Below, piece after piece: positions 1,910-31,212 of a DNA stretch of 64,000 nucleotides. How positions within the stretch are numbered: the stretch's first letter is position 1; each line of letters starts with the position of its first letter. The notes below the pieces were generated by a model, which ran no database searches, was not told the origin of the DNA, and saw only the letters and a program-made list of their open reading frames with translations. Origin of the DNA: Dipteris shenzhenensis (taxonomy: Eukaryota); assembly GCA_047967505.1 (NCBI GenBank), contig CM106538.1. The stretch is one strand, 5' to 3'. Both the position numbers and the translations under genes were made by a program.

Positions 1910-2219
1910 AGAAGTTTTAGAATCTATTCGAGGGGAAAATCAACATCACCAACCTGATGTGTAGGTGGTGGAGGGGTTGTCTCTGAAATGCGAATAGTTG
2001 GCTAGATTCCACTGCTTAGACTAGACTACCTACGATCAAGAAGCTAAACTATGGAGCGTTTTTAAACATATTGCTTTAAACTCTTAACACCTTTGAAAAA
2101 AATACACCTTTAAAACTTGCATATAGCCATAGCTATTGGGGTGTGTGTGTGGGTAAAGCCATATGAAAACGATGGCCACCTTTCAAATTGTTGCTTTTCC
2201 TCATTAGACATCGTAGTAC

Positions 2220-3571
2220 TATTAACTAGAAAAGAATTCAATGCATGAGGCTAGATGCTAGGCATGGCAATGCTCGAGGGCCATGGAGGAAAAGGGAACA
2301 TGAGGGAAGAAGTGCTAACATAGGTGGGGAAAAAAAGATTAAGAGGGGTGGGAATGAAGAGGGGGACTATGGCACAAGGGGGAAGGAAGAGGGGGAAGAG
2401 GAGCATGTACATGATGGGAGGTGGAATATAGAGATAGAGACATCAAGGGAAGAGAGTCATGCCTTATTGGAAAGATGGGGAGGAAATCAAAGTACTAGCT
2501 AGGAGGCTTTACAAGAATGAGCGTGTTCCATCAAAGAATAGCCTCCTCCTTTTATAGCTAAGAGAGGGGGTCTCTCCCAATAAATGCATCCTCCCACATG
2601 CATGGTGTATGTGGAAGAGTGTCCCATTTGGGCTAGGCAGTTACACACTCTCAATTATGTGTGACAACCCTTTGCCTCATTTTTCCACATATATCAACCC
2701 CCATATCCCAAGTCTAATATACTCCCTTGGTCTCTTCCCAATTTTATAATACATTCAAACATCTAGGAGGACAAGTGGAGGGTTGGCACAAGGAATCTTG
2801 CCCCTCATCCTACTTTCCCATTATTTAACTTGCATTCTTGGACTTTCTACCACCCCCCCCTGTTGAGATATCGAGCTCCACTCGCGATATGCTAGGGTGA
2901 CTATTGTGCATTTATGTCACCGACTTGTTAGCTGGAGATGCGGTTGGTACACCGCCCACGATGGATGACAGCTATCCTTATCTACTCTAGTTTGTGGCTC
3001 AGTTAGTATGCCACCTTAGTTAGTTGAGTTTGGTTTGAGACCCACATATAGGGTTCTTCTATTTTCTTTGTACTAGAGTTCTTTTGGCTTTCACAACTAA
3101 GAAGAGGAAAACTGTTTTCAGCCTCCACCTTTGTGTGTATTCCCCCAATTGTTCATGTGAGAAAGCCGCAAGTAAGACTCCTTCCCTCTCTCCCACTATC
3201 TTCACGCCCCCCACATGGGCCTACCCTACATGGAGGGAATAATCCAATATAATATCCATCTCCAACTATTTTATATTACCTCTCCCATGGTCCTTGGGCC
3301 ATATCTAACTAAATGCAGGCGTGGGACCACCTAGGTGGAGGGGTGGTGCATGGAGGACCTATGCCACCTTATCATTTTATATTATTACTACCATGGATTA
3401 TGTACAACACACCTTATGGGTCCTCTTACATGGAAGGGTGGCACATGGTCATGCCCTACTACCACCTCAACCCTGGGCCTTATGCACACCATATTTTATT
3501 ATGCTATTGCCACACATACAAGCACACACACATATTTATGCCTTTTACTTTCGTCAAATTTATCCATAACA
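2220..3571 (-). repeat. 3' LTR of element A (contains a nested 344-bp insertion)
   Basis: Direct repeat of 10318-11303; minus strand begins TGTTATGGAT and ends CTAGTTAATA. Confidence 0.92.
2861..3204. mobile_element. Probable solo LTR of an unrelated family nested in the 3' LTR of element A
   Basis: Absent from the other two LTR-A copies; TGTTGAGATA...TATCTTCA termini; inserted in a C-run (ccccc / cgccc flanks). Confidence 0.75.
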
Positions 3572-3574
3572 GTT

Positions 3575-3582
3575 CCCCCCCC
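3575..3582 (-). promoter_or_regulatory. Polypurine tract of element A
   Basis: Minus strand GGGGGGGG-AAC immediately before the TG of the 3' LTR. Confidence 0.8.
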
Positions 3583-3649
3583 AATCAAGGAATGCATAGC
3601 ATTTCCATGCCTTGGACCATCACGCACAAAGAAGGGCTTGAGACAATGC

Positions 3650-4750
3650 TTGTTGATCACCTTCTTGCCATATGGCTCATGCAGTTCCTGAACTTGTACA
3701 GACCCATTGCTACATTCCTTGATGACTTTGTATGGACCAGTCCATAGTGGCAGAAACTTCTTATCCATTTGGTGGTCCAATCTGTGATCAAAGCCTAGCA
3801 TAACATCCCCCTCAACAAAGTGTCTTTCCCATCCCTTGCGAATTATAGCATCCAAGCAGGCCTTTTGTCGATTCTTTTGGATCTCTGTTTGATGTAGTGC
3901 AAGGCGTCGGGTTTCATCTAACTTCTCAAGTTGTACCAACCTAGCCTCTACATGTTCATCTTCTGTCCTCTATTCTCGTGCCAATCTCAAGGCCGGAATC
4001 TCTATCTCTAGTGGTAAAACTACCTCAGTACCATACACCAACTCAAAAAGAGTGTGTCATGTAGACATTTTATGAGTGATGTTGTAAGCCCACACAACTT
4101 CAGTGACCTTCTGATCCCACTGGCTCCTATTCCCTGTGGCCATTTTTCCCATTGATTTACAAAGGAGGCCAATGGTCCGCTCCGTTTGTCCCATGGATGC
4201 TGGATGATAGATGCTGGATTATAGATCCATGAGCAACTCCACTACTTCATTTAAGAATGGACTCCCATGGCCAAATACTATTTCCTTGGGTGTACCAAAC
4301 CTTGTGCAGATATGTTCAAATATGAAATTTGAAACTGCCTTACCATTTGCAACGAGGAGGGCATATCTTTGGCCCACTTAATGACATACTCAGTGGCTAC
4401 CAAAAGATACTTCTTTTTGCAGGCAGTCATGGGTAGGGGCACAACAAAATCTATTCCCCACTTCTGAAACGGATGGATGGACATCATTGGGTGATGTTGC
4501 CGAGGATGCAAATCCTTCCTACCAAAGAATTGGCATGGCTCACAAGTTTTGCAATACATAGTGACATCCTTGAACAAGGTCGGCCAATAGTACCCAGCAT
4601 GTAAAATCTTCTTAGCTGTATAGTCACCGGCATAGTGTCCTCCACAAAATCCATCATGATAATGGTTCAATACCTTAGGTACTTCATTTGCATCAATGGC
4701 CTATCTTAGTACCCCATCCAGGTCTTAATGGTATAACACCCCATCAAAGA
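3650..4750 (-). pseudogene. Gypsy integrase (HHCC, rve core, GPY/F motif), disrupted
   Basis: HYHDGFCGGHYAG...CKTCEPCQ, WGIDFV, WTGPYKV in ORFs 4278-4670 and 3499-3939; no chromodomain seen. Confidence 0.92.
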
Positions 4751-4899
4751 GAGTGTAGTGCCTACTATCTCTACGGATTTTCTTTCTCTCATAGCTAGTA
4801 CTTTCTGGAGGAAAGGAGAAAGCGGTCAAAAACTTGTAGATTCCACCATACCATAGATCCCCAACTTCTATGGCCACTACAAGGATTACATCGAGGCAC

Positions 4900-5300
4900 T
4901 CCTCTAAATCAATCAAAGCATTCTTCAAGTTGGAACAACCCCCTTTTACAATTTTGAAAGAAAAATCATATTCTTGTAAAACTGCCAACCATTTGGCCAA
5001 CCGGCCCATGGGATTTGGTGATTGAAGAACTTGCTTTGCAAGACCATTGCTACAGATTATATTGAAGGACAATCCAGCAACATAATGCTTAAATTTCTCA
5101 ATGTAGAATACCAAAGACAAAGCATGCTTGTCAGCCTCTGAGTAACGTCATTTAGTTTCGAGCAATTATCGAGAAGCAAATCGAATAGGATACATGAACC
5201 GATCCTCCCCTTGCTGGAGAAGAATACCTGCTAGAGTGTGCTCACCAAACCCAAGATTGATATAGAAAGTCTTTGACCAATCAGCATTGCATAGAATGGG
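4900..5300 (-). pseudogene. Native Gypsy RNase H domain, catalytically degenerate
   Basis: WSKTFYINLGFGEHTLAGILLQ...YPIRFASR...YSEADKHALSLVFYIEKFKHY...GRLAKWLAVLQEYDF; fold motifs kept but D/E/D positions read G/H/S. Confidence 0.85.
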
Positions 5301-6300
5301 TTCTGAAGCCAGAGCACTCTTGATTTGTACAAACCCATGATCACAATCCTCATCCCAAGAGAAATCAACTCCATCTTTTAATAGCATAGTCATGCGTCGC
5401 GTCAAAGCAGCATATTGATCAATGAAGCAGCGATAGTATCCTGCTAGATTGACAAATGAGCGTACTTGACATTTGGTTGTTCACGGGGAGAGCTTGAGGA
5501 TAGTTTCTACCTTCTCGGAGTCAAGCTTGATGCCCTCAGATGAGACAATATGTCCCAGTAACCTCCCTTGAGTGGCTCCAATGGTGCATTTATCAGGGTT
5601 AAGGCTACCATTCGCATCATTAACCTTTTGGAAGGCCAACCTAACCTTCATGACGTGCTCCTTACATGTCGAGATGATACAGAAATCATCTAAAAACACC
5701 TCCAAGAAAACCCCCAAATAAGGAGCAAACACCATTTGCATAAATCTTTGAAAGGTAGCAGAAGCATTGGTTAGGCCAAATGGCATTACTTTGAATGCAA
5801 ATGTCCCCCAAGGCGTGGCAAATGTGGTTTTAAGCACATCCTCCTCAACAATTCTGATTTGATAAAACTCGAAGTAACCATCACAGAAAGTATACATCTC
5901 ACGACTACTTACCTTCTCACGAATGAGGTCTTGAAAGGGAAGAGGATGATGGTCCCTCTTGGTGGCTACATTGAGTTTCTTATAGTCGATGCAAACCCGC
6001 AACTTCTTGTTTTTTTTTGTGTTGACTACCACTGGTGAAACCCATTTAGTATTGTGAAACGAAACAGTAAGCCCAGCTCCTACAAGTTTTTGCAACTCTG
6101 AGTGCAAAGCATCAGTCTGTAGGGGCCGTAATCTTCGATACTTCTCAGCCACAGGCTTCGCATCAGGCTTCAGCTCTATCTTGTTCTTTATGGTAGTCAC
6201 ATGGCAAAGGTGTCGGTAGCTAGTTGCGAAGAGGTCAGGGATATCTTTGAACATTTTTAGGAACTCATCTTTCTCACTTGGAGTGAGGTCTGGGGAAAGC
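5300..6300 (-). pseudogene. Gypsy reverse transcriptase, disrupted
   Basis: WVSPVV...RVCIDYKKLN, TTFATPWGTFAFKVMPFGLTNA, VFLDDF in ORF 5481-6371. Confidence 0.95.
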
Positions 6301-6529
6301 ATAGATTCAAGCTGTTGAGGACTATCTGTTACCTTTTCTATAGGTGGCAGGGTCGGAGACACCCCCATCATGTAAACTTTCTCCTCCGTCTGATTCTTCC
6401 ATTAATTCAAACACCGAGGATGAGAGAGTATCACTGTCTTGCTCCTCTTCTTCTTCTAGTTCAGTGGCACCTGGTTGCACCGGGATCTTCTCCTTAAAAG
6501 CACCAAAAGACATGTGTCATGTCTTCCAA

Positions 6530-6860
6530 TAGCTGACTGCATCACTCTTTCTCAACCATGGTCTCTCAAGTATGGCTGGGTAACTCCTGCCTGTATCTTC
6601 AATGTCCACTACATAGAAATTGACGGTAGTGGTCAACCCATTGATAGTGATGGGCAAATCCTCAATGACTCCTAGGGTGGCAAGTCGTCAACCATCTACT
6701 ACCTTGATTCGAGTGGAGGAATGCCTTGTGCATTTCAAATTCAATTTCTTCATGATTCAGGGCACCATGATATTACATGCAGCTCCCCCATCAACACACA
6801 CTTTTGACACGGCAATTATCTATAATGACATCTATTGTATGTGGGTGCCGATTAATTTCT
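6530..6860 (-). pseudogene. Gypsy aspartic protease, frameshifted
   Basis: Minus-strand VDGGAACNIM near 6765-6800, located between gag and RT. Confidence 0.75.
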
Positions 6861-7269
6861 TCAGAGATAGAAGAGACCTCTCATACCTTTCCCTTTTTCT
6901 TGCTCCTCCTTACTGAGAGCCCTTGCTGCAACTCACGTCTCACCTTAGGACTTAATGCTATTAGTTGAGGGAGCGTGATGCTCAAAGACCAATGAGCAAG
7001 GTCCTGAACGACCAAATAGTCCTCTTGCCCCGAGCCGATGGGAAAATCTAAGGCTGACCAGTTACTCCTGCAAGATCTTTTAGTCTTCTCTGTTGGTGGG
7101 TCTACCATCTCAGCATCTTAGGGCTCTGAGAAGGACACCTTCTTCCTAGGGTAGCCTGATCCACAGTTTTGAGAGGGGTCCGAGGTGGTATGACTTCTTT
7201 TCCCGAGGTTAAGGATCTCTACTTTAGAATCCTCCGTGCTTCATTCACTTAGAAGATCCACCCTTGGAA

Positions 7270-8189
7270 TATTGGGACATTCCATGCAATAATGACCCTT
7301 CTAGTGGCACTCGTAGCACACAACATTGGCACGTTCTCTTGGAGGGTGATTGGCTTGATTTCTAATGCCCACCATCTCAAGCCAAAGATCATTCAGGGCC
7401 TTAGCTAGGTCATTGACTCCAGGTTCTTTAGCAGGAGGCACTGGGGGAGTAGGAAGCAGGGGGGCTCATGGGCGAGGCTGGGAAAATCTTCGAGGTGGAG
7501 GTGAGGATATACTCCTTGTTGAGGGTAAGCATCTAAGGGAGAACCATACATTTGAGGTGGAGGCTGTGGATACATCCCTGATGAGGGGTGGGGGTCTGCC
7601 CTTGAGTTAGACCCCCCAGGTTGTTGTTGCAAGAATTGAGGGCATTGCGGAGGGACAATTGTCTTCTTTAAAGCAGGATCAGACTGAAATTTATCAAACT
7701 TTTGAGCAATCTCATGTGCTAGCACCATAGTTTCTAGATTCTCCCATTTAAGCTTGAGGCGAAATTCATCACTTGTTCCTGCTACAAGGTAGCCCAGCAC
7801 ATATTGAGTCATTCCAGCTCAAATCTGGCATTGTCCTCCTGCGTGGCAATTAAACGGTCCAAGAGAACAGCCGCTCGATCCACATATCGACACGCCGTCT
7901 CACCTTCTGACTGCTTCAAGTTTGCCACCTGTAAGTACACATTCTTTGGCTCCTCTTCTTTGTCGAAATACTCAATCATCGCTGTTGTTAACCTTAGCCA
8001 GTTTTGGTGAACGTTGTCAGCATGCTTCTCATACCACACTTGAGCCAAACCCTCTAGAAATGTGGGAAGAACCAACAGCCATCTATCTTCAGTAAGAAAG
8101 TTGAGAGAAACACAACAGCGCTTGAAGGCCACAAGATACTCATTTGGATTTTCTTCAACCCATCCACAGAACACAAGAATGTCAACCAT
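7270..8189 (-). pseudogene. Gypsy gag (capsid-like region plus CCHC knuckle), frameshifted
   Basis: ENPNEYLVAF...LEGLAQVWY...LKQSEGET in ORF 7809-8189; VCYECH*KGHYCMECP at about 7275-7325. Confidence 0.88.
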
Positions 8190-8539
8190 GCTTGAAAAAT
8201 GGAAAAGAGAGAGTCAAAATGAGGCTTATCTATTGGCAAACAATAAAAAGAGGTAGCTTGAACTGAAAATCAGGTGAAGATACATCCACAAAGCACACAT
8301 AGGCAGGGTAGGGTGTGACTGGTGTATTGTGAAATACTACACGACGAGAAGAATCTTCAGCATAGAATAGCTCATATACAATCTTAAAAGGACCAACCAT
8401 CATGATATTGCATCCATCTTTACAAGCGAGTATTAGAGACATGGCACTGCATGAGGTTGTTCACCAAGGAAAACAAGAATGCCATGACAAATGTCAACAG
8501 TTGGAGAGCTTGCACATCACCTTCAGCTTCTTCCAGTTC

Positions 8540-9500
8540 TTGTAATCACCATGCTATTTCTTCAAGGGGTGTGTGCTCTGGCATCCTTCTTTTGAGCAAT
8601 GTCCTTGAGGACCTTTCTGATAATCTTCCAAAGTCGGTAAACTCGTACCAAATATGCCCAACACTTAGTTTCATGATGACCACAACGTTTGCATTCCTTA
8701 CAAATGATCACCCTTCTTCATGGCTTGCGGCTTTGTTAGGGCGGTGCTTCCACTCGCTTCATGCATGATTGAAGTACAAGCTTCACATGTGAAGAAATCA
8801 GCAACTATATTTTGAGCTCAAGGGATATGTTGAATTTTTGCCTCTTCAAGTTGATGTCGTGAAACCAAGCCTTCGCTCCACACCTTCCACCTTCCACTAA
8901 CTTGTTCACACACGAGTTGAGAATCTCCTTGCACCTCAAGTTGCTTGATGCGATGTCCTTGTGCCTTTTTTAGCCCAAAAATGAGTGCCAAGTACTTAGC
9001 TTGGTTGCAAGTCCTTGCTAGTGCAGAGTTGCTATAACAATACACCTCACCCCCTGGTGAAGTGAGCTTCACACCCACAGCAGCAGCCTTGGCCGAAGGT
9101 TTGTATGCACCATCAAATTGGAGGAGCCAAGATATAAGAATTAATAAGCAGATGCGCCAAATCTCCCCCTAAGCTTAGGGAGCATCCCACCCTTCGAAGA
9201 ATGTCACCCTTTTAATTACCTCCAATGCAGCAAGTAGCTCGATCATCGCACAATGAGTAGAATTGAAATCAAAGTCCTCTCAGTGTATCACTAGTTCTTC
9301 ACCTTGAATCATTCACAATGTATCATCCCACCCATCGTCTTCTTGAACAATGCATTGTACAATCAATTGTTGAAGATCAACATAAAGATCAAGAAAGAGA
9401 TCTCGCCAATTGGTAGCTGTAATGAGCAGAGGATCAAGCACCGAATCCTTGAACTCGTCGAGAAGTGACATAAATATCCACCCTCCTCGTGTGGTGTGCA
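8540..9500 (-). pseudogene. Accessory ORF upstream of gag: unknown N-terminal region, archaeal-type RNase H (aRH), CCHC knuckle
   Basis: WLLQFDGA (~9108-9129), CNQA(K/E)YLALIFGL, LEVQGDSQLV, NIVADF, then CKECKRCGHHETKC (~8660-8700); same order in the copy at 24760-25870. Confidence 0.85.
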
Positions 9501-10292
9501 TCCAAGGAGTAAACTTGAAAAAGTTCAGAATCTACAATCTAGTATCAGATATGAATAGAGCACATGAAATGAAGTACTTTTGCTTTTTACAACAAGAGGA
9601 AACTCCCTACGGTTAGAGAGTTACAGTTCACAAGATTTCACCATATAAGCAATATCATTACACTTTTATCACTTCCTATTTGCTGGCCCTTGGTAAGTCT
9701 TCCTTTTGTGAATGAGAAGGTCTTGGGTTCAATTCCCACTCCTTCATAAAAAGAGAGGAGAGGAGAGGAGAAGAGGATAGGGGCGCGAGATCTTTTGCAG
9801 GAGCCCAAAAAGTCGGTCCGCGACACACAGGTGTGCCAGAAGACGCAGGAACCCAGGAAAATAGTTGCGATTTGCCCACGATGTGCAAATGCACCAGAAT
9901 ACGCAGGAATTCAAAAAACAGTCGTGATTCACGATCTGTCTACGATGCGTAGATGCACTAGCTATGACTAGGGGACATGCGGGTGTTGCAGATGCACAGG
10001 AGCGATTTTGCAAGTGTGATCAACCAAAAGACGCATGGTACCACACAGAAGGCACGTAGGAACCCACATGCACAGGAACCGTGGGCTGAAGGTGTAGGAA
10101 TCCAAAAGATGCGCAGGAACCACAGGCTAGAGGCATAGAAACTGAGAAGTTCTGCAACCATAGAGTCAGAGAATTGCGAGCAGAAGATACGTGGATTGGA
10201 GGCGCAGAAGCAAAGAACCGCACACGAAAGGTACTACAGAACTACACCCAGCCGTAGGAGTAACGAATTTTACACCACTTGCCGTGGAGATT

Positions 10293-10313
10293 TCGATCCC
10301 AGTAGCCACACCA
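10293..10313 (-). promoter_or_regulatory. Primer-binding site, complementary to a tRNA-His-like 3' end
   Basis: Minus strand TGGTGTGGCTACTGGGATCGA 4 nt after the 5' LTR; plus strand ATCCCAGTAGCCACACCA resembles the recalled plant tRNA-His(GUG) 3' end ATCCCAGCAGCCACACCA. Confidence 0.75.
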
Positions 10314-10317
10314 GTTC

Positions 10318-11303
10318 TATTAACTAGAAAAGAATTCAATGCATGAGGCTAGACGCTAGGCATGGCGACGCTCGAGGCCATGGAGGAAAAGGGAACTTGA
10401 TGGAAGAAGCGCTAACATATAGGTGGGGAAAAAAAATTTGAGGGGTGGGAATGAAGAGGGGGACTATGGTACAAGGGGAAAGAAAGAGGGGGAAGAGGAG
10501 CATGTACATGATGGGAGGTGCAATGTAGAGATGGAGACATCAAGGGAAGAGAGTCATGCTTTATTGGAAAGATGGGGGGGAAATCAAAGTACTAGCTAGG
10601 AGGCTTTACAAGAATGAGCATGTTCCATCAAGGAATAGCCCCCTCCTTTTATAGCCAAGAGAGGGGATCTCTCCCAATAAATGCATCCTCCCACATGTAT
10701 GGTGTGTGTGGAAGAGTGTCCCATGTGGGCTAGGCGGTTACGTACTCTCAATTGTGTACGACAACCCTTTGCCTTATTTTTCCACATACATCAACCCCCA
10801 TATCCTAAGTCTAAGATATTCCCTTGGTCTCTTCCCAATTTTATAATACGTTCAAACATCTAAGAGGACAAGTAGAGGGTTGGCACAAGGAATCTTGCCA
10901 CCTCATCCTACTTTCCCATTATTTAACTTGCATTCTTGGACTTTCTACACCCATCCCACATGGGCCTATCCCACATGGAGGGAATAATCCAATATAATAC
11001 CTATTTTATATTACTTCTCCCATGGTCCTTGGGCCATATCTCACTAAATGCAGGCGTGGGACCACCTAGGTGGAGGGGTGGTACATGGAGGACCTATGCC
11101 ACCTTATCATTTTATATTATTGCTACCATGGATTATGTTCAACACACCTTATGGGTCCTCTTACATGGAAGGGTGGCACATGGTCATGCCCTGCCACCTT
11201 AACCCTGGGCCTTATGCACACCATATTTTATTATACTATTGCCACACATACAAGCACACACACATATTTATGCCTTTTACTTTGGTCAAATCTATCCATA
11301 ACA
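10318..11303 (-). repeat. 5' LTR of element A
   Basis: Direct repeat of 2220-3571 minus the nested insert; followed by the PBS; TATA-like CTATAAAAGG on the minus strand near 10645-10654. Confidence 0.92.
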
Positions 11304-11682: not shown

Positions 11683-11748
<66 letters not shown>

Positions 11749-12256
11749 TTAGAAGCTTTAGAATCTATTCAGGGAAAAAATCAACATCACCAACCTGATG
11801 TGTAGGTGGTGGAGGGGTTGTCTCTGCAATGCACATAGTTGGTTGGATTCCACCGACTGGACTGGACTACCTACAATCAAGAAGCCGAACTATGGACCGC
11901 CGTTTTTAAACATATTGCTTTAAACCCTTTATACCTTTGAAAAAAGTATGACTTGAAAACTTGCATGTAGCCATAGCTATTCGTGTGTGTGAGTGGGTAA
12001 AGCCGTATGTCGAAAACAACAACCAACTTTCAAATTTTTGCTTTTACTCATTAGACATCGGAGTACACACACACGCTTTCATTGAATAATTTAGAGCTTT
12101 CTAATCCCAACTTCTCATTCTATGCATTATGCCAACATAGAATGGATTTTTAAAATACATCCAAGAGATAATTTGAAAGCTTTCTAAAAATTTACTATAT
12201 CAGCTTTCAACACTCAACTTTTGTTTGTCAGATCTAAGGTCCCCTACCCGTGAAGA

Positions 12257-12321
<65 letters not shown>

Positions 12322-12659
12322 CTAGTACCCATAAAGAAAAAGAACTTGAGCTTGAGAGTCTTTTTTCTCAAATTATTATTAGCTAATCCCATAAAAGTGA
12401 AAAGTTTCCCTATAAATTCAAAATGTTATGCATACATAAAAGAAATATACGCTCTGCCTAATCTTAATTCTATTATTTCCTTGGCCAATACAAACCAAAA
12501 ACTTAAGTTTCCTCTCAAGAGACTATTTATACTATTAAATCTGAGAATTTCTAGTCAAAGAACCTTGTAGAGAAGAGATAAGAGCTGGTACCCATAAAAG
12601 TGCAAATAAAATTTCTATCTCTAAAACAAAACCAAAAATATATAGATATTAATAAATGT

Positions 12660-12725
<66 letters not shown>

Positions 12726-13247
12726 CTCTCTCTAGAAGCTTTAGAATCTATTCAAGGGGGAAATCAGCATCACCAACCTGATGTGTAGGTGGTGGAGGGG
12801 TTGCCTCTGCAATGCGAATAGTTGGCTGGATTCCACCGATTGGACTGGACTACCTATAATCAAGAAGCTGAACCATGGACAATTTTTAAACATATTGCTT
12901 TAAACTCTTTACACCTTTGAAAAAAGTACACCTTTAAAACTTGCATGTAGCCATAGCTATTGGTGTGTGTGTGTGTGGGTAAAGCCATACGAAAACGATG
13001 ACCACCTTTCAAATTGTTGCTTTTCCTCATTAGACATCATAGCACACACACACATGCTTTCATCGGTTAATTTAGAGATTTCTAATCCCAACTTCACATG
13101 TTGTAATAGCCCTTGGAAATAAATTGCTGCAACTTTAAATGATCCACCTTGAGCTAATTATGAAATCCATGCATCCATAAAATTATCAAACATTAGAAAT
13201 TGTACAAAGATATTAAATATTAAATTGATCTCTTTGTCTCTCTTGAA

Positions 13248-13281
<34 letters not shown>

Positions 13282-13800
13282 GAGAGAAAAGAGAGTGAAC
13301 TAAAGCATGCTTTTGGGCCTTCTATTATATGCTAGCATAATGCATAGTACCTAGAGTATTAGTTGGTGCACACCTATTAGTGCATGCATAAAATTATCAA
13401 ACATTAGAAGTTGGACAAAGATATTAAATATTAAATTTATCTCTCTCTCTCTTGAATACACACACATATTGAGAGAGAAAAGAGAGTGAATGGTGCATTA
13501 TGCTAACATATAATAGAAGGCCCACAAGCATGCTTTAGTTCACAAAAGCCAGCAGGAGTGCCTCTAATTAGAAGCCTTTTTAAAAATTTACTCTACAAGA
13601 TTTAGAATCTATTTGAGAGAAAAATCAACATCATCAACCTGATATGTAGATGGTGGAGGTGATGTACATGTAATGCAAACAGTTGGCGAGATTCCAGTGA
13701 CTTGGATTGGACTACCTACAATTAAAAAGCCCAAACAAAAGGGTTAAATCAACTATGGACCCTTTTTTAAACATATTCTTTACACCTTTAAAAAAATTAC
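11304..13800. repeat. Right part of the modular tandem repeat (modules Z-X-Y-X-Z-partial X)
   Basis: X at ~11750-12060, ~12733-13040 and degenerate ~13575-13790; Y at ~12076-12732; Z at ~11321-11750 and ~13057-13450. Confidence 0.85.
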
Positions 13801-14203
13801 GCCTTAAAGGATTGCTTTTAAAAATGATGTGTGGTTTGAGAGAGAATTGAGCTCTTGGCCCGATCCCTACCCAGCACCAAAGTTCTCCTGAGACCCCTCC
13901 ATCATCTCTAGAGACATAAGTTCAAAATGAAGCTATCATTCAACCTCTTGTGTCCAAACATAGAAGTCCAAACATAGACCCCTCCCAACTCTCAGATTTG
14001 CCATGTGGTTGGAGGAGCCCTTAAACAATGGGTGTTGAGAGTAAAATACAGTAACAACTCTCTTTCTCCCTCGTTTTTGTAGTGGCTAAGCCTTGTTCCA
14101 AAGGGGTTTTCACAATACCTTTGATGATTTCAATTACCGAGCTGTTGGATTCTAGCAACGTTGAGGCGTTAGCTTAATAGGTTCTGTGTGTGTGTGTGTG
14201 TGT

Positions 14204-15204
14204 TGTTATGGATAAATTTGACCAAAGTAAAAGGCATAAATATGTGTGTGTGCTTGTATGTGTGGCAATAGTATAATAAAATATGGTGTGCATAAGTCCC
14301 AGGGTTGAGGTGGCAGGGCATGACCATGTGCCACCATTCCATGTAAGAGGACCCATAAGGTGTATTGTACATAATCCATGGTAGTAATAATATAAAATGA
14401 TAAGGTGGCATGGGTGCTCCATGCACCACCCCTCCACCTAGGCAGTCCCATGCCTGCATTTAGTGAGATATGGCCCCAAGACCATGGGAGAAGTAATATA
14501 AAATAGGTGGAGCTTGATATTATATTGGATTATTCCCTCCATGTAGGATAGGCCCATGTGGGGGGGGGGGGTGTAGAAAGTCCAAGAATGCAAGTTAAAT
14601 AATGGGAAAGTAGGATGAGGTGGCAAGATTCCTTGTGCCAACCCTCCACTTGTCCTCCTAGAAGTTTGAAAGTATTATAAAATTGGAAAGAGACTAAGGG
14701 AGTATCTTAGACTTGGGATATGGGGGTTGATGTATGTGGAAAAATAAGGCAAAGGGTTGTCGCACACAATTGAGAGTGCATAACCGCCTAGCCCACATGG
14801 GACACTCTTCCAAACACACCATGCATGTGGGAGGATGCATTTATTGGGAGAGACCCGCGCTCTTGGCTATAAAAGGAGGAAGCTATTCCTTGATGGAACA
14901 CACTCATTCTTGTAAAGCCACCTAGTTAGTTCTTTGATTTCCCCCCCCATCTTTCCAATAAAGCATGACTCTCTTCGCTTGATATCTCCATCTCTATATT
15001 CCACCTCCTATCATGTACATGCTCCTCTTCCCCCTCTTCCTTCCCCCTTGTGCCATAGTCCCCCTCTTCATTCCCACCCCTCTTAATCTTTTTTTCCCCA
15101 CCTATATTAACGCTTGTTCTCTCACGTTCCCTTTTCCTCCATGGCCCTAGTTATCGTCATGCATAGCATCTAGCCTCATGCATTGAATTCTTTTCTAGTT
15201 AATT
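14204..15204 (+). mobile_element. Solo LTR of family A inserted in a (TG)n tract
   Basis: Reverse complement of 10318-11303 over its full length; (TG)n on both sides giving a TGTGT or GTGT duplication; no PBS or PPT adjacent. Confidence 0.92.
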
Positions 15205-17934
15205 GTGTGTGTGTGTGTGTGTGGCTCTCTATCTCTCTTGACTTGCCTACATGAAACAACATTGTTTTCTATTTGGCCTCTCTATCTTATCAGGCTCCCT
15301 CCGCCCACACTCTACTGCCCTCTTCTTGCCTTTCCTTATATTTTTGTGGGTATGAAATGCATGTGATTACCTTTCATACACTTGGAGCCATTGTGTTCTT
15401 TATCCATGCCGACGAACTTTACACAGATCATAACAATGAACAGTAGTTTGTTTTCTGTTTTTATGGGCAGGAAGGATGTGAATTGTGGGAAGTTCATGCT
15501 GACTACGTCTGCAGCCCAAAATGCCAAAATTCTGCAAGAGACGATGTCAATCTTGTCGCAAAACCGTGAATTGGGAGCTCGATCCATCCTCTCCCTCCTC
15601 GATGTCATTGTATCCTCTCATTCCTCTCACGTTTCCCTTAGAGATGACGATAATCCAACAGCATAGACGGCCCTCACATTCACGTACCTTCAATGTCTTT
15701 GATCTGCTTGCCAACCTCTGATTTTGACCCCTCACTTCCTCCATTGCCACTGCACTTGCTGCTTTTGCTTCTTATGCACTCCTTCATGCTTTCTTCTTCC
15801 AATCTGCATCATCCATGGCCCTGCCTCTTGGTTGACACCCTCCTCCACCTCCCCCCACTTCTCTATTATTGCCACCGACCTATAGAAAAGATGGATGGAT
15901 GACCACAATTTGAAAAGGTAGAACGTAGAGGAAACATAGTGTATTCCAAAATTTTTTAGGTGCCACGATTTGTCATTCCAACGATTCCTTGCATTGAAGT
16001 TTTTTTTCCTTGCATGCAAAGCTAAGGCCATCCTTGCATCTCACCATTGGCTCGTCTCCTCTTCCCTTGGAAATGCCCATAATGGTAGCTTTCTGGCTCA
16101 ATTGTCTCGCATTCTGTGTCATTTGTTTTTGTTACAATATTTCTACAGCTCCCAGGCATTCCGCGCTGTCTCGCCCCTCTCAAGTGAAATGGATCACGTC
16201 GTGGGTCTGCAGTACAGCTGGGAAAATCTCATTTGGGTTCAATGGATTGTCATTTGTATCGAATCCTGCGATTCAGATGGCGATCATATATGAGAGCGCA
16301 CGTCATAAACGTCTCTCTATATGAGTCGAGTTGTGCATCCTATTAAATGTTGCGCAACAAATGCACTGCCTGCAAATTCTAAAAATGATTCTCTTGTCTT
16401 AAAGGACGCAAGTTGTGTTCGCTTTCTTCTCTTGCAAGGTCTCATTGAAGTTTTTTTCCTTGCATTGTAGTTTTTTTGTGCGGTTTCCAGACGCTGGTGA
16501 ATGATACTTAGCTACTCAGGTGAAGATAGTTCCCCTTTTGACATATCTCACCTCGCTTCTTGGTGATTTCATATTTGCATCTTCCCGATCGTCATTCCTT
16601 TTATAGCTCCCTACGGGATGATTCAAGCCAGCTCTAGGCTAATATTGTGGAGCAGCCTGAATGTGCGTCCTTCATGAGCGCTTTCTTTCACCCCCCGTGA
16701 GGTACTAATCCTAAACCGCAACCTACAAAGCTTCAAAGCTTGCGAACGCATTGCAACAGAGGAAAGCTAGCAGAGAAATACCTGGAACTCTCTTTGCAAG
16801 GTTGCCTTGTGGGTCGAGTCGCCTTCTCACTTGCTCCTTTCTTGCTACACCTTTTGCAACTTGCGCTTCCTTGTTCACAGCTTCCGCTCCTTTGCTCATA
16901 GCCTGAGCTTCTCTCAAGTTCCAATCGTTTCTTGCTTGAGTAGCCTCCATCTGCTTAGCCTCCATCCCTTCTTGCATGTAATGCTTCATTCTTTCTTTTT
17001 TCTGTGAGTTGAGAGGAAAGCGCGTTTTCGAGAGCGTGTTTTGAAGCACCAAGTGGCATAGAGAGATTGTGTTTTGAAGCACCACGTGGCATATCCATAC
17101 AAATGCCACGCGGAACCTCTCCTTAAAGTATAGTATAGAAGTATAGATAGATGTGTGTGTATGTATGTATATGTTTTTCCCAAATTTTCTTAAAATTCCT
17201 CGAAGGTAACTCTTAGATTTATAAATGAAACTTTAAATTTTATTGTTTGAAACCTAACTTTTTCAATGTAGAGAGTTTTCCACGTATCTTTAAAGCTTCA
17301 GGCAAGAGGGCAAGCTGTTTAAACTTTGGGTGAAGTGGGGGGAACATTTGTTTGGATGGCACAGGAGACGGCACAGCCACGACATGTGGGTGGTAAAAAT
17401 ACGGCCTAAAGAACAGCATTTTGCCATCTGAAGCTCGTAGCCTCGCACAAAATCTACTGCGAGTTCTCTTTTGCTGACGGAAGAACACGACAATGGAAGA
17501 CGACGAAGACTGACCATGAATCACGGTTAGCAGCTCGAGGAAAGAACTACAAAGAAGAGTGTGAGGCATCGCTCTGCCAGTAGCTATCTCGAGGAGGAGG
17601 AGAAGAAGAGTGTGAGGCATCGCTCTGTTAGTACTTAGCTAGCTATCTCGCGCCAGGAGAAGACAAGCTTGCGACACAAGGAGGAGGAGAAGAACCAGCG
17701 ACAGCAGGAGCAAGAAGAAGAAGAAGAAGCAGCAGCAACGGAGGAGGAAAGAGCACTTCGAAGGCGGGTTGAGGTATTTCAGAAAGAACATCAGCTACGT
17801 CGAAGAAGAAGCAAATAGCATGAAAAGATGAAGAGAGGTTGTGGTGCGATGCAGAGACGAGTCGAGATATTTCAGAAAGAAGATCGATCAGCTGCGGTGT
17901 GATGCAGAGACGAAGCACCAGGCCGACTACAACG

Positions 17935-20446
17935 ATGATGACGAAGAAGAAGCACCTCCTCTCAGCTCTCAGCTTCTGCGTTCTCATCCTGCTCCATCTC
18001 TTTGCAGCAGCAGCAGCTGCTTCGTCCTCGTTCGACATCGATGAAGCCACAATCGCAGATATCCATGCGGCCTTCGCATCAGGAACACTCACCTCCACTC
18101 GCCTCGTCCACCTCTACCTCGCCCGCATCGCCGCCCTCAATCCCCGTCTTCACGCTGTCATCGAAGTCAACCCCGACGCTCTGCTTCTCGCTCGTAAGGC
18201 GGATCGCGAGAGGAAGAAAGCGGGCCGGCGCGGTCGCCGGGGTCGATCATCCCACCAGCTCGCTGCACTTCATGGCATTCCCGTGCTTTTGAAGGACAAC
18301 ATCGCCACTCTCGATAAGCTCAACACCACTGCTGGCTCCTTCGCTCTGCTTGGCTCCCAGGTGCCACGGGATGCAGCTGTGGTTGCCAGGCTACGCAGAG
18401 CTGGAGCCATCATCTTGGGAAAGGCGAATCTCAGTGAATGGGCCAATTTTCGCTCCACCAATTCTTCCAACGGGTGGAGCGCCCGTGGAGGACAGACCAA
18501 GGTATCCAACAATCCAAGTTCCTCTACACTCTCATCGTCTAGTTGATCGATTGCATTTCACATGTGTGATTTCTCTCCTCGCGCTTTGCTAGAACCCTTA
18601 TGTTCTCAGCGCCGATCCTTGCGGTTCCAGCTCTGGCTCAGCTGTGGGTGTGGCAGCAAATCTCGCGTCTGTGTCTCTAGGGACTGAAACCGACGGATCG
18701 ATCATTTGTCCGGCGTCTCGAAATGCCGTCGTTGGTGTCAAGCCCACCGTTGGTCTTACCAGTAGATCAGGGGTCGTTCCGGTTTCTCACCATCAGGACA
18801 CCGTGGGGTAGGAATTTTTCAACGCCCAATGCTTCAATTTCCATTCCAGTCCATGCTCTTATGATTGGAACGCTTGTTCCAGCCCTTTGTGCAGAACCGT
18901 GACGGATGCTGTCAAGGTTCTGGATGCAATTGTAGGCTTTGATCGATTGGACGCTGCTACAGCCACTGCTTCCCATTTCATCCCGAAAGGAGGATACACG
19001 CAGTTTTTAAAAGTGCATGGGCTTCGTGGGAAGCGGCTTGGAATTGTGCGGCATCCATTTTTTTACCTCGAAACGGATCTCAGCGAGCAACCCGCTTTCG
19101 ACGAGCTTCTCCTCCTCATGAAGTACCCCTCCATCTTCTGTGCATGCTCTGTTGATCATTTTCTTTGCGATTATCATGTAGTTAATTGTCAATACACTAT
19201 CCTACTTTGGTGCCTCACAGGAAGAAGGGAGCCCAGATTGTTGATAATCTGACTATTGCGACAGTGGATGAGATAACAGCTGGGCAGTTTGAGAAGACAG
19301 TTCTTATCACCGATTTCAAGCAAGACCTCCACGAGTACTTGGAGCAGTTAATAGTGTCGCCAGTAAGGACATTAGCAGATGTGATTGCATTTGACAACAA
19401 GCATTCTAAGGAGGTTAGATTCTCGACCCCCGGCACGGACACGTCTCATATTTTTGAACGCACCAAAGCCTCACCATGCAATTGTTGTTTTAGAGCAGCG
19501 CATCTGCAAGCAGTGTTTGCTCTCTGTCTGGCTTCTTAATTACTCCTGTTTAGTGGGCGTTCTGCTAGGAAGCCAATCTGCAGCAACTGGATCCATATGG
19601 TGTCCGAAGGATTTTCTTCTTAAGCTTCATATCCCTCTATCGATCATTGAATTTAGCTTTAAGTATCCATCTTTGCTTTCTTCGCTCGGTTCTTGGATAT
19701 ATTATAATCAAATATCGGACCTTTCGCCCTTCTTGATTTGCAAATCGAATCATAGAGGGTTTCCTCGTGGAAGGGGTTTAGAAGATTGCCCGCACAGTTT
19801 GTTTCTAAGGGGTAGAGTCATCTATCTTATCCAAGTGAGTGGTTCAAGCATTGTTCCCTTTTCTATTTCTTCTTCCTTCCAAGTTCCAGATGAGAAACAC
19901 TATTGTCCCTTCGTGACATCTTCTAAACTCTGCTTATATCCATAGACCCTTTGATTTTTGTTGTGGTACCAGAACGAATCAAGTACTATACTCTTGTAAG
20001 CAGTTTGCAACATACATTTCTTTCAATGGGCGTCTCTACTTTATTCAAGAAATCTTATGGGTTTTTGCTGGTTTGTGGTCGGCCAGGAGGAGATTTCTCG
20101 GTTCGGGCAGGAAATCTTCTATGAATCTGAGAAGACAAAGGGGTTCGGTTCGAAGGTTTACAGGGAAGCCGTGGAGGGGGATGGTGAACTAACGAAGAAG
20201 GGAATCGACAGGCTAATGAAAGAGAGGAAGCTGGATGCGATAGCGGCACCATCGTACACATCGATAACGTCAGTGGCGGCCATAGCTGGATATCCTGGAA
20301 TCTCTGTGCCGGCAGGGTACACTGAAGGGGTGCCATTTGGCATATGCTTTGTGGGTGAGCGTGGAAGTGAGGGCAGACTTATCGAAATAGCCTACTCGTT
20401 AGAGCAAGCCACGCTCATTCGCAAGCCACCCCTTTACTTCACGTAA
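17935..20446 (+). CDS. Amidase-signature family amidase, plant At4g34880-like; exons 17935-18501, 18593-18807, 18883-19122, 19221-19413, 20087-20446 (524 aa; alternative in-frame ATG at 17902)
   Basis: LHGIPVLLKDN (catalytic Lys), GKANLSEW, PCGSSSGS, GTETDGSI (Ser-cisSer-Lys triad), GYPGISVPAG...PFGICF; all four introns GT-AG with consistent phases and an open frame; hydrophobic N-terminal signal-like segment. Confidence 0.93.
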
Positions 20447-24156: not shown

Positions 24157-24757
24157 TGTGACATGAAGTTGGGGGTAATGAAACTTCACGCACCTCTTAG
24201 CTTCCTGCTCTTTCCAATCTTAATAATAGGGACCCTTATCACTTGCAAAGAGAGAGGAAGAAAATATTTTCATGCAAAGAAAACCACAACATGTCTTTCT
24301 CTTTGCTTCCTTTAGAGAAGAATGAATATGGTAACATCCCGAGTGATGTGTAGTCCAGCATCGGCAGAAGAAAAGGATTCGCAGAGGCCATTATCTCACC
24401 AAGCCGGGCCGGCACCAAAGAGAAGAGTGATACGTTGTTGTAAGAAGATCTTTTGGCTCCACATGACATGAACTGATATATATCTAGGGGCTTGAAGGAG
24501 CTGATTTGGCTGGATGGGTAAATTCCGGGGAAACATGGCACCTCCTTCATAGAAGCCTCTAGAAATGGCTCAAAATCATTCTACAAATTGCTAGAAAACA
24601 CAGAGGTCTATAACTTCTACCAAAAGACTGATATCAGAAATTATAGTACATTATAAGGATGTGCCTTGAAGTGAGCTTTGTACTGATATAAGTTTTGTTG
24701 AAAACAGATAACTGGTTGAAGAGATATGGACAGTTTACTGAAAGGGGGTAGAAACTC
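24157..24757 (-). repeat. 3' portion of LTR family B, inverted
   Basis: Reverse complement of about 29300-29897, ending ...CATGTCACA. Confidence 0.88.
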
Positions 24758-26467
24758 ATTGTTTAAGGAGACGACGGGTGGAATGATACACTGTGGTTGA
24801 TTCAAGGTGAAGAACTGGTGATACACTGGGAGGACTTCGATTTCACTTCTACTCATTGTGCAGTGATCGAGCTACTTGCTGCATCGGAGGTAATTAAAAG
24901 GGCGACATTCTTCAAAGGATGGGATGTTCCCCAAGCTTGGGGGGAGATTTGGCGCATCTGCTTATTAATTCCAGTGGATAAGCTTGTCGTAAATGATTTC
25001 TTCTCAATCTCGCTACAAAGGTTTCTAGGGCTTGGCTATGGTTGGTAATGTTTCGACCAAGGAATCCCTTTGCACCTAATCAACCCTTTGTGTCTCATTT
25101 TGAGCTTCAAGTTGTAATTCTTTTTTGTCTAAAGATAAACTATCAACAAAGGATTGCAATTTTATTTGGTACTGAACATCTTGCTCAAGTGTTGAATTCT
25201 CCCCACCCTCTCCTTCTACCTATCTTGGATTATCGAGAAACTTGGGATGTTTGGATTTTAGTCTTGGTGTGATGACATCTTGGCTACTTCAATTTGACGG
25301 AGCATACAAACCTCTGACCAAGGCTACTGGTGTGGGTGTGAAGCTCATTTCACCGGGGGGTGAGGTGTATTGTTATGGCGAGTCTACACCTGCAAGTACT
25401 TGCAACTAAGCTGAGTACTTGGCACTCATTTTTGGGCTACAAAAGGCACAAGAACATCGCATCAAGCAACTTGAGGTGCAAGGAGATTCTCAATTCGTGT
25501 GTGAACAAGTTAGTGGAAGATGGAAGGTGCGGAGCGAAGGCTTGGTTCCATGACATCAACAAGCATTGGAACTATGCCAACAATTTGAAGAGGTAAAAAT
25601 TCAGCATATCCCTTGAGCTCAAAATATAGTTGCTGATTTCTTGGCATGTGAAGCTTGTACTTCAATCACACATGACGCGAGTGGAAGCACCACCCCAACA
25701 AAGCTGCAAGCCACGAAGGAGGGTGATCCTTTGTAAGGAATGCAAAGGTTATGGTCATCACGAAACTAAGTGTTGGGCATATTTGATACGAGTTTACCGA
25801 CTGCGAAAGATCATCAGAAAGGTCCTCACGGACATTGCTCAAAAGAAGGATGCCAGACCGTACACCCCTTGAAGAAATAGCATGGCAAGAGTTACTCATG
25901 GATCGCATGGGTATAGATCATCACACTTCTAGCATCTATTATCCAGCATCCATGGGTCAAACTGAGTAGACCGATGGCCTCTTTTGTAAAACCATGGGAA
26001 AAATGGCTACAGGGAATAGAAGCCAGTGGGATCAGAAGGTCACAGAAGCCGTATGGGCTTACAACATCACTCATAAAATGCCTACAGGTCACACTCCTTT
26101 TGAGTTGGTGTACGGTACTAAGGCCGTTTTACCACTAGAGATAGAGATTCCAGCTTTGAGATTGGCACAAGAACAAAAGATGATAGAAGATGAACATGTA
26201 AAGGCTCGATTGGTGCAACTTGAGAAGCTAGATGAAACCCAACGCCTTGCCCTACATCAAATAGAGATTCAAAAGAATCGACAAAAGGCCCGCTTGGATG
26301 CTAAGATTCGCAAGGGATGGGAAAGACACTTTGCTGAGGGGGATGTTATGCTATGCTTTAATAACAAATTGGACCACCAAATGGATAAGAAGTTCCTTCC
26401 ATTGTGGACCAGTCCATACAAAGTCATCAAGGAACATAGCAATGGGTCTGTACAAGTTCGAGAGCCT
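24757..26467 (+). mobile_element. Internally deleted relative of element A: accessory aRH/CCHC ORF joined directly to the integrase C-terminal half
   Basis: 24760-25885 matches reverse complement of ~8545-9355 (plus an extra ~300 bp); 25890-26465 matches reverse complement of ~3685-4240; gag, PR, RT and RH absent. Confidence 0.88.
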
Positions 26468-27537
26468 CATGTCCACGTGTTCCAATAATATAAGAGAGGC
26501 CACATGCCAAGAGTGTGGAAGGCATGTGGAGGAGTGTGGAGTCAAGAGGAATCCTTCTAGAATTCCTATGTGGAATAAGGAGGATGCGGACATATGGAAA
26601 AGAGAGGGTCCCTATGGGCTCCATGTGGGAAGACTCTTGACTTTCTCAATATTTTAAGAGTTTTGAGCATCTTTTGATGGGACACATGGCAAGAGTAGCC
26701 AAAAAGGACATGGATGGTGACATACGGGCTTATGCGATTGATGGGGAAAGGAATTTACGGGCAGCAATTTTAAATGGGTGAACGAGGGTGACAGAATCTC
26801 TATAAAAGGAGCCCTCCTCTCCCTTGTTCATCAATCTCTTCCACCATTAGGCCTCATGTTGTTGTAGCTCTAGTCTCCTCAAGCCTCTTCCATGAGCCTT
26901 CTCTCCCTCTTGTAGATATTCTCTTATGTAGACTCTTGAGTCCATCTCTCTCTAGTTTATTCTCTCTCTCTATGAGTAGTCTTGGAGCTTCCGCTCCCTC
27001 TTGTATGTATGAAACCTCTTCTTCTCCCTTGTGTTTATAGTATTTTGAGTGTATTTGAGTGGAGTCTTACTCTCATGGCAATGAAAGTCACTTATTATTT
27101 TTCTTAAGTCTCCATTCCTATGTTCTTTTCTCTCTCTATTCAAGTCTCTAAAGTAGTTCTTGTTCGGCCACTCACTGTGCACACATGGTCCATCCATTTC
27201 CTGAGCCACTATGCAAGCTTCTTCCTCTCTTTTAGGCGAATTCTAGGGGTATTGGATCGTTGATAATTGGGGAGCCTTGAGGGAGTAGTTTACTCAGGCG
27301 AAATTAGCATGGGTGGAGGGCAGTTTTTATGATAGTTTGACTCCCTGTTAGTATTTTGCTCATGACTTTCTGCTCATTAGTCCGATTTTGATGAAATTTA
27401 TATCAACGTGAAGCTCTCTTCGAGTCACATGTTTCTATATGATTAGATCTTGAATCAAATACTACTGTAAAAACTTATGAGTCTCTGTGTTTGATAGTCT
27501 ATTTTCATGACAGTTTTTACCCCCTTCCAGTAAACTC
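26468..27537 (+). repeat. Internal fragment of LTR family B
   Basis: Near-identical to about 28097-29165; lacks both termini. Confidence 0.88.
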
Positions 27538-27720: not shown

Positions 27721-27846
27721 TTGTACCACCACCATGTTTCCTCTTGACTCATCCCGATCAGCACCAAGACAAAGACCAAAGGCCACTCCTAATGATGTTA
27801 TAGCACACCTTCTTATCATTTTCCTGCAAAATCAATTCTCCAGTAA

Positions 27847-29897: not shown

Positions 29898-29900
29898 TTA

Positions 29901-31212
29901 TGTGATGCCAAAATTTGATATTTTTTATTTGGCATTGGTATTGTTTTCTTCTATGTTTGATAAGAGTTTGAGTAGCAAGTGATAGCCTAACGGCTCTCAC
30001 TTATTTCTATTTTCTAAGATATTGTATGGGATTGAGAGGATGAGTGGAATGGATCATTGTAAATGCCATAGGTATGAATTATAAACCTTGGTATGGGGTG
30101 AGAGTTATTTGTCTATGGGATATTATGGGGTTTTTAGAAAATAGGAAGAGTGAGTCATATAAAGAGGTGGGCTCATGTCCACGTGTTCCAATAATATAAG
30201 AGAGGCCACATGCCAAGCGTGTGGAAGGCATGTGGAGGAGTATGGAGTCAAGAAGAATCCTTCTAGAATTCCTATGTGGAATAAGGAGGATGTGGACATA
30301 TGGAAAAGAGAGGGTCCCTATGGGCTCCATGTGGGAAGACTCGACTTTCTCAATATTTTAAGAGTTTTGAGCATCTTTTGATGAGACACATGGCAAGAGT
30401 AGCCAAAAAGAACATGGATGGTGACATACGGGCTTATGCGATTGATGGGGAAAAAAATCTACAAGCAGCAATTGTAAATGGGTGAACGAGGGTGACAAAA
30501 TCTCTATAAAAGGAGCCCTCCTCTCCCTTGTTCATCAATCTCTTCCACCATTAGGCCTCATGTTGCTGTAGCTCTAGTCTCCTCAAGCCTCTTCCATGTG
30601 CCTTCCCTCCCTCTTGTAGATATTCTCTTATGTAGACTCTTGAGTCCATCTCTCTCTAGTTTATTCTCTCTCTCTCTATGAGTAGTCTTGGAGCTTCCAC
30701 TCCCTCTTGTATATATGAAACCTCTTCTTCTCTCTTGTGTTTGTAGTATTTTGAGTGTATTTGAGTGGAGCCTTACTCTCATGGCAATGAAAGTCACTTC
30801 TAATCATTTTCCTTAAGTCTCCATTCCTATGTTCTTTTCTCTCTCTATTCAAGTCTCTAAAGTAGTTCTTGTTCGGCTACTCACTGTACACACATGGTCC
30901 ATCCATTTCCTGAGCCACCATGCAAGCTTTTTCCTCTCTTTTAGGCGAATTCTAGGGGTATTGGATCGTTGATAATTGTGGAGCCTTGAGGGAGTAGTTT
31001 GCTCGGGCGAAATTAGCATGGGTGGACAGTTTTTATGATAGTTTGAACCCCTATTAGTGTTTTGCTCATAACTTTTCGCTCGTTATTCCGATTTTGATGA
31101 AACTTATATCAACGTGAAGCTCTCTTCAATCACATGTTCCTATACGATTATTAGATACTATTGTAAAAAGTTTTGAGTCTCTGTGTTTGACAGTCTGTCC
31201 TCATGACAGTTT
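29901..31212 (+). mobile_element. Second LTR-B copy, head-to-tail with the first, truncated by a LINE
   Basis: Starts TGTGATGCCAAAATTTG 3 nt after the previous LTR; homology stops at the LINE poly(T) near 31215. Confidence 0.85.

Follow-up and report, generated by a model that had tools for sequence, protein, structure and literature searches.

The window analyzed here, a 64,000-nucleotide stretch of contig CM106538.1 of Dipteris shenzhenensis (assembly GCA_047967505.1), contains a decayed LTR retrotransposon of 9,088 bp on the minus strand (copy 1, positions 2216-11303), whose limits were established by self-comparison of the window and by reading of the element's ends. The 5' LTR (10314-11303, minus strand) is 990 bp long by self-blastn, and the 3' LTR (2216-3571, minus strand) is 1356 bp long, owing to approximately 340 bp of extra sequence at 2856-3194. 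The two LTRs align as 10313-10952 with 2215-2855 at 93.0% identity and as 10940-11303 with 3195-3571 at 92.0%. A primer binding site (PBS)-like sequence, read from the DNA at 10290-10313 (minus strand), opens with TGG (10313-10311) immediately past the end of the 5' LTR; in a search for its tRNA partner, ARAGORN identified no tRNA gene in the window and Rfam returned no match on 10240-10340. At the opposite end of the internal region, a polypurine tract (PPT; 3572-3586, minus strand) with a run of eight G residues adjoins the 3' LTR.

The internal region begins with a leader of about 1.15 kb (9139-10289, minus strand) that includes 18 ATGs and a long frame open for 72 codons (9316-9531, minus strand). 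An equivalent frame of 93 codons (24767-25048, plus strand) is found in a second copy of the family described below, and neither frame has a match in Pfam. The leader is followed by a decayed open reading frame (ORF) for an archaeal-type RNase H (aRH; 8701-9138, minus strand; Pfam RVT_3, E 7.2e-15) and by a frame open for 51 codons (8565-8717, minus strand) that encodes a CX2CX4HX4C (CCHC) motif. A TGA (8562-8564) closes this frame and, after 9 nt, is followed in the same frame by the presumed ATG of gag (8550-8552, minus strand; context AGCATGG). The gag region (7277-8552, minus strand) is broken into several frames and carries a Retrotrans_gag domain at 7812-8213 (Pfam E 1.3e-6), together with its own nucleocapsid (NC) knuckle at 7277-7318, which has an in-frame stop inside. 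The pol region (3502-6687, minus strand), delimited by the ORF map and by Pfam matches to RVT_1, RT_RNaseH, and Integrase_H2C2, comprises a protease (PR) remnant (6520-6687), reverse transcriptase (RT; 5484-6401), a native RNase H (RH; 4728-5480), and integrase (INT; 3502-4700), all on the minus strand. The order PR-RT-RH-INT, enclosed by LTRs with a PBS-like TGG site and a G8 PPT, is that of a Ty3/Gypsy element, and the best match of the RT/RH region in the PDB is the Ty3 RT/RH structure 4ol8 (E 8.3e-45).

Copy 1 interrupts another repeat. Its flank at 1206-2216 matches 12027-13042 (91%) and the flank at 11304-11704 matches 13039-13452; because both flanks match there, 12027-13452 is recognized as an uninterrupted paralog of the insertion site, which lies at approximately 13040. 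Part of the interrupted repeat unit is also tandemly repeated at 11688-12118. No target-site duplication could be resolved, as the insertion borders on a (CA)n tract beside the position corresponding to ~13040 in the paralog. A solo LTR of the same family, in inverted orientation and 92-95% identical to the LTRs of copy 1, occupies 14186-15203 and has (CA)n runs on both sides. The presence of (CA)n at both places may reflect an insertion preference or the growth of microsatellites at LTR ends.

An Archaeal-Type RNase H ORF Upstream of gag

A sequence-only reading of this DNA had placed an aRH domain between the PBS and gag, on the same strand, and the present analysis bears this out: the domain recognized by RVT_3 has the 5' LTR and PBS-like site on one side and Retrotrans_gag on the other. 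The motifs that had been named, FDGA, an NQAEY-type motif, QGDSQ, and NIVAD, all occur where they had been placed, in a single minus-strand frame spanning 8701-9138; the second of them reads NQAKY in copy 1 and NxAEY in copy 2. The corresponding ORF of copy 2 (25272-25736, plus strand) retains its ATG at 25272, has three in-frame stops, and covers positions 2-122 of the 123-position RVT_3 profile (E 1.4e-25), which is far beyond chance. A tblastn search with an intact relative (P0003) detects exactly two aRH copies in the window, that of copy 1 with 70% identity over 154 amino acids (aa). As this search finds no further aRH there, the LINEs resident in the window are without one.

By sequence, the closest relatives of the domain in the PDB, as found with phmmer, are the RNase H1 4e19_A (best match, E 1.6e-17, 37% identity), Rv2228c, and the RNase HI ST0753. 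A model of the protein made with AlphaFold from 31 sequences has a pLDDT of 89.6, falling to an average of 67 in the block 131-140 and to below 50 at residues 142-154, and in a Foldseek search it is matched best by the Halobacterium RNase H1 4e19, with a TM of 0.90 on the target, and by the archaeal RNase HI 2ehg. The label of archaeal-type RNase H is therefore correct, since the closest proteins by sequence and by fold are archaeal RNases HI. The fold and the DEDD active site are those of the archaeal-type enzymes of Halobacterium (4e19) and Sulfolobus tokodaii (2ehg/3aly). The aRH differs from these in being encoded by a retrotransposon and in its predicted form, a 154-aa protein with a disordered, Ser/Thr-rich tail of 24 residues.

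Relatives and Decay of the aRH ORF

A search of 5.8 billion clustered proteins recovered close relatives that are 71-81% identical to the aRH of copy 2, with nine matches at E ≤ 6e-19, all of them from short contigs in public assemblies. Two 90% clusters list 23 members, of which 14 are exactly 154 aa long: the first, with eight members, contributes six of these, and the second, in which 15 of 25 members are listed, contributes eight. Public assemblies thus contain at least 14 distinct intact versions of the 154-aa protein, in which the DEDD core is conserved and the disordered tail varies. All 14 have Met at the first residue of the domain, end at the same place as the window copies, and retain D9, E48, D72, and D122. 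Variable positions amount to 20 of 130 in the folded core and 10 of 24 in the tail (Fisher p 0.009), a difference that would fit constraint on the enzyme, in a comparison that covers intact protein sequences only. A search for longer proteins found no aRH relative exceeding 273 aa, although this weighs little as evidence. The best matches in a search of 1.84 billion proteins were proteins with multiple RVT_3 domains (plus SAP), which are uninformative for lineage. When contigs were scanned with P0003, metagenomes yielded 85 pattern matches and viral contigs two, none of which was confirmed.

The aRH ORFs of the window are, by comparison with these relatives, decayed. That of copy 1 has Ile at the position of the start Met, the substitution E48K, a deletion of eight codons, and a TGA where the relatives have Arg115; one of the three in-frame stops of copy 2 is this same TGA. 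Between the two copies the aRH frame has accumulated 9 synonymous and 30 non-synonymous changes, corresponding to a dN/dS of 0.97, which indicates neutral decay, so the window copies give no sign of selection. Both copies are dead and nothing in the window is active today.

The aRH belongs to the element as a family feature. Contigs at least 85% alike to the element were collected from three DNA runs of one organism (134, 167, and 186 contigs, respectively), and their depth is above zero in all 24 bins of 7200-9743, in gag and aRH alike; the family is present at high copy number. Coverage by contigs of other copies extends over 9320-9743 and becomes sparse at 9744-10167 in the three DNA runs. 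A further run, guessed to be RNA, gave 11 contigs and no cover over 8684-9107. Loose contig ends at 9133/9138, and likewise P0011, reveal that other copies carry about 300 bp that are absent from copy 1, and it is this private deletion that brings the long leader frame at 9316-9531 into register with the aRH frame. The absence of this segment could in principle reflect splicing, with copy 1 arising by retrocopying of the spliced transcript; this intron reading was rejected because GT..AG borders are lacking and there is a filler of 4 nt.

An alternative is that the aRH segment is a nested insertion or captured fragment residing in the leader, derived for instance from the 3' end of an L1-type LINE or from a host gene with RVT_3. 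In favor of this, LINEs are abundant in the window, and plant L1 elements and host genes commonly carry RVT_3 domains (compare the multi-RVT_3 proteins above). However, the segment has the same neighbors in both window copies, and in all three DNA runs the aRH bins are covered by contigs of other copies just as the gag bins are. No LINE RT or APE, zf-RVT, poly(A), or flanking duplication adjoins the aRH; tblastn with P0003 finds the domain nowhere else in the window, resident LINEs included; and the ORFs of the relatives are intact, each beginning and ending with a start and stop codon of its own. The same layout is, moreover, in print for a whole Tat cluster (PMC10508981). Given that contigs cover aRH and gag alike and that nothing LINE-like adjoins the segment, a nested insertion is very unlikely, and the evidence supports the aRH as a stand-alone ORF 5' of gag that characterizes the family rather than a private insertion. 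In this respect the sequence-only reading, which had proposed a separately supplied aRH, has held up: the ORF is intact over 154 aa in relatives and contigs of other copies cover aRH and gag alike.

A Second, Truncated Copy

Homology to copy 1 starts abruptly at 24757 and stops at 26459 against other repeats, defining a second member of the family on the plus strand (copy 2). Its first piece (24757-25885, plus strand) includes part of the leader, the aRH ORF, and the CCHC frame (25630-25872, plus strand), which is open for 80 codons and has its motif at 25732-25773. This piece is joined almost directly to a C-terminal piece of integrase (25928-26459, plus strand) with 89% identity to 4215-3690 of copy 1, such that homology jumps from 25885, just past the presumed gag ATG, to 25928, and the region from gag through most of INT is missing. 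LTRs were looked for at this copy and none were found; copy 2 is a truncated and internally deleted fragment of the family of copy 1. The recurrence of the arrangement at 24760-25870, which had been claimed, accordingly stands for the aRH-CCHC pair and fails for its context: because homology jumps to the C-terminus of integrase, no gag follows and the position upstream of gag is not preserved.

The surroundings of copy 2 are themselves repetitive. A 600-bp unit (24157-24756) abuts its 5' break and recurs in inverted orientation at 29303-29897, where it holds a distant copy (60%) of the segment directly upstream of the aRH start (29604-29739 versus 25131-25265). Downstream of copy 2 there are three direct copies of an LTR-like unit of 1.1-1.3 kb, at 26466-27536, 27846-29166, and 29900-31212.

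The CCHC Motif Between aRH and gag

The zinc-knuckle motif said to follow the aRH is present in copy 1 as CKECKRCGHHETKC at 8661-8702 (minus strand), and its CX2CX4HX4C spacing is exact in both copies. It does not, however, lie within the aRH ORF. Its frame is shifted by +1 from that of the aRH in the two copies alike; the aRH stop falls within the first Cys-Lys codons of the motif, and all 14 intact relatives stop there. A nucleic-acid-binding aRH-CCHC protein, as the sequence-only reading put it, is therefore not supported in that form, given that the motif is in another frame, fails the Pfam zf-CCHC profile, and occurs in none of 182 proteins, made up of the 150 aRH relatives listed, ORFs belonging to the family itself, and three read-throughs of the window. 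The motif overlaps the end of the aRH ORF, both its stop and the part coding for the disordered tail, and most likely does not belong to the aRH protein.

An alternative assessment is that the CCHC frame is functional in its own right, either as a fusion to the aRH produced by a programmed +1 frameshift where the aRH ORF ends or as the N-terminal part of Gag; in this case the single TGA that separates it from the presumed gag ATG in both copies may be a product of decay common to the two, and a nucleic-acid-binding tether would bring a trans-acting RNase H into the particle. Several observations are favorable to it. The pattern is rare, with nine matches to a CX2CX4HX4C regular expression in the six-frame translation of the 64-kb window, and at least six of the seven others are in gag or ORF1 contexts of retroelements, four of those being confirmed by Pfam. 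The CCHC frame is free of stops over 51 codons in copy 1 and over 80 in copy 2, while the aRH frame is decayed in both; in each copy it is in phase with the presumed gag ATG; and the TGA at the Arg115 position that is common to both copies shows that shared stops can arise by decay. Its neighbors in a protein language model are small proteins from clusters in which 15-24% of members carry zf-CCHC (score 0.93, 176/256 features), and the aRH tail that overlaps it is predicted to be disordered (pLDDT 43-67). Between the two copies its dN/dS is 0.33, compared with 0.65 and 3.3 in the other frames, but this derives from only six synonymous and eight non-synonymous changes and is not significant.

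Against these points, the PF00098 (zf-CCHC) profile has no match to the motif in either copy at E up to 10, whereas all four of the other knuckles in the window used as controls are matched (E 2.8e-6 to 5.5e-4), and the motif is without the aromatic residue after the first Cys that is typical of a zinc knuckle. All 14 intact aRH ORFs end ahead of it, none of the 182 proteins carries it, no called protein of 44-140 aa resembles the frame, and no signal for frameshifting was identified. A functional CCHC frame is on this evidence improbable, and its fuller form, in which live members would translate the frame as a frameshift extension of the aRH or the N-terminus of Gag and thereby recruit the separate RNase H or its RNA into the particle, is slightly more doubtful still. 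Such a function would be relevant to the way in which an RNase H encoded in trans becomes part of the reverse-transcription complex. It would also answer how an aRH outside pol can function, which PMC10508981 leaves open and which its section 7 raises for elements of structure #3 (see below) as well. This knuckle-like frame, of putative function, is the one detail of the locus that may be unreported. The main texts searched do not mention a zinc knuckle adjoining the aRH (the word "zinc" does not appear in the main text of PMC10508981 or of PMC4408406), and a literature search combining RNase H, zinc knuckle, and a position upstream of gag returned nothing relevant.

The Native RNase H

The aRH of copy 1, identified by RVT_3 and by its matches to archaeal RNase HI, is present in addition to the native RH of pol, as in the aRH-bearing Tat elements. 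When this RH is aligned with that of Ty3, 'tt-D-as' of Ty3 is opposite 'in-l-G-f' and 'rt-D-h' is opposite 'cs-N-g', so that Gly and Asn occupy two Ty3 Asp positions in what is a single decayed copy. These Asp residues we take to be catalytic, which is supported for one of them by the difference between two Ty3 structures: at the Asp of 'rtDH', 4ol8 has Asn (evidently a mutant that was crystallized) and 7q5b has Asp. The catalytic core of the native RH is thus degraded in copy 1, as far as the sequence of one decayed copy can tell. This agrees with section 7 of PMC10508981, according to which every Tat structure that bears an aRH has a degraded native RH.

Relation to Known Architectures

Copy 1 is probably an old and dead Ty3/Gypsy LTR retrotransposon of the Tat kind with a layout that has already been published, and copy 2 a fragment of the same family. 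Membership of Tat rests on the architecture and on the degenerate RH. The layout reads 5' LTR, PBS, a leader of ~1.1 kb, a 154-codon aRH ORF, gag, PR-RT-(degenerate RH)-INT, PPT, and 3' LTR, with the aRH as an independent ORF in the 5' untranslated region, as judged by its position and by the 14 relatives with their own start and stop.

The main text of Biryukov and Ustyantsev (2023; PMC10508981) describes as structure #4 of Tat an aRH encoded by an independent ORF upstream of gag, found in Tat B of mosses and Tat C of Selaginella tamariscina. Prokopeva et al. (2026; PMC13468544) refer in their text to the same layout as "pre-capsid" and attribute its discovery to Biryukov and Ustyantsev together with Wang et al. 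(2021, New Phytologist). Copy 1 shares with structure #4 the Ty3/Gypsy order PR-RT-RH-INT, the independent aRH ORF between the 5' LTR and gag, and the degraded native RH; nothing architectural separates it from the descriptions in the main texts of the two papers, and a zinc knuckle is mentioned in neither of them. The sequence-only reading had proposed a further architecture, against a background of three aRH positions inside the polyprotein that agrees with the text of Neumann et al. (2019; PMC6317226), and had named prior cataloguing of the domain order as grounds for withdrawing the proposal. Since structure #4, or pre-capsid, is already published, the proposal falls on those grounds. The feature is real and was correctly spotted, yet its architecture has been described before and is represented here by dead copies; for that reason the locus adds little.

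What the locus does provide is an independent example with clean boundaries, namely LTRs, a PBS-like site, a PPT, and a paralogous uninterrupted site, within which the solo aRH ORF is located 5' of gag and not 3' of integrase. This is of consequence because the published accounts differ on mosses: one sentence in section 2.4 of PMC13468544 assigns them a "post-integrase" layout, whereas section 5 of PMC10508981 places the moss aRH upstream of gag. Earlier, Ustyantsev et al. (2015; PMC4408406) had described moss Tat-like elements as having no aRH "in their coding sequences". The post-integrase and pre-capsid layouts could be confused if the boundaries of an element are uncertain. Structure #3 (post-integrase; conifers, Cycas, and Ginkgo), as presented in the main text of PMC10508981, resembles copy 1 in having the aRH in a separate ORF outside pol, but differs in that this ORF is 3' of integrase, whereas in copy 1 it lies between the PBS and gag within clearly delimited LTRs.

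By analogy with retroviruses and other Tat elements, live members of the family would translate a 17-kDa aRH as the first ORF of the full-length RNA. The protein may then act in trans as the RNase H for the RNA/DNA hybrid made by the RT, whose own RH would serve only as a connecting tether. Gag-pol would be produced from the same RNA after reinitiation or leaky scanning, or else by internal entry, simple scanning being disfavored by the 18 ATGs that the decayed leader of copy 1 contains. The scheme resembles the dual RNase H of retroviruses and Ogre/Retand-type elements, in which a presumed dead native RH serves as the connection and an acquired RH as the enzyme. In those elements, however, the acquired RH is part of the polyprotein (an aRH in pol after the tether-like RH), whereas the aRH of the present family would have to reach the RT in trans.

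Remainder of the Window

Apart from the elements described above, the window is made up of L1-type LINEs (RVT_1, Exo_endo_phos, and zf-RVT, with an ORF1 carrying DUF4283 and zf-CCHC) and copia-type elements (RVT_2, Retrotran_gag_2, and rve), and no RVT_3 domain was found in either type of element in the window. These LINE and copia-type regions include 32300-37131 and 55202-60093, which are inverted relative to each other and 90% identical, together with 40719-41441 and 53900-62497. The only evident piece of a host gene is a 240-codon frame at 17824-18546 (plus strand) that matches the Amidase profile PF01425 (E 9.1e-26) over positions 2-124 of 445 and presumably represents a first exon.
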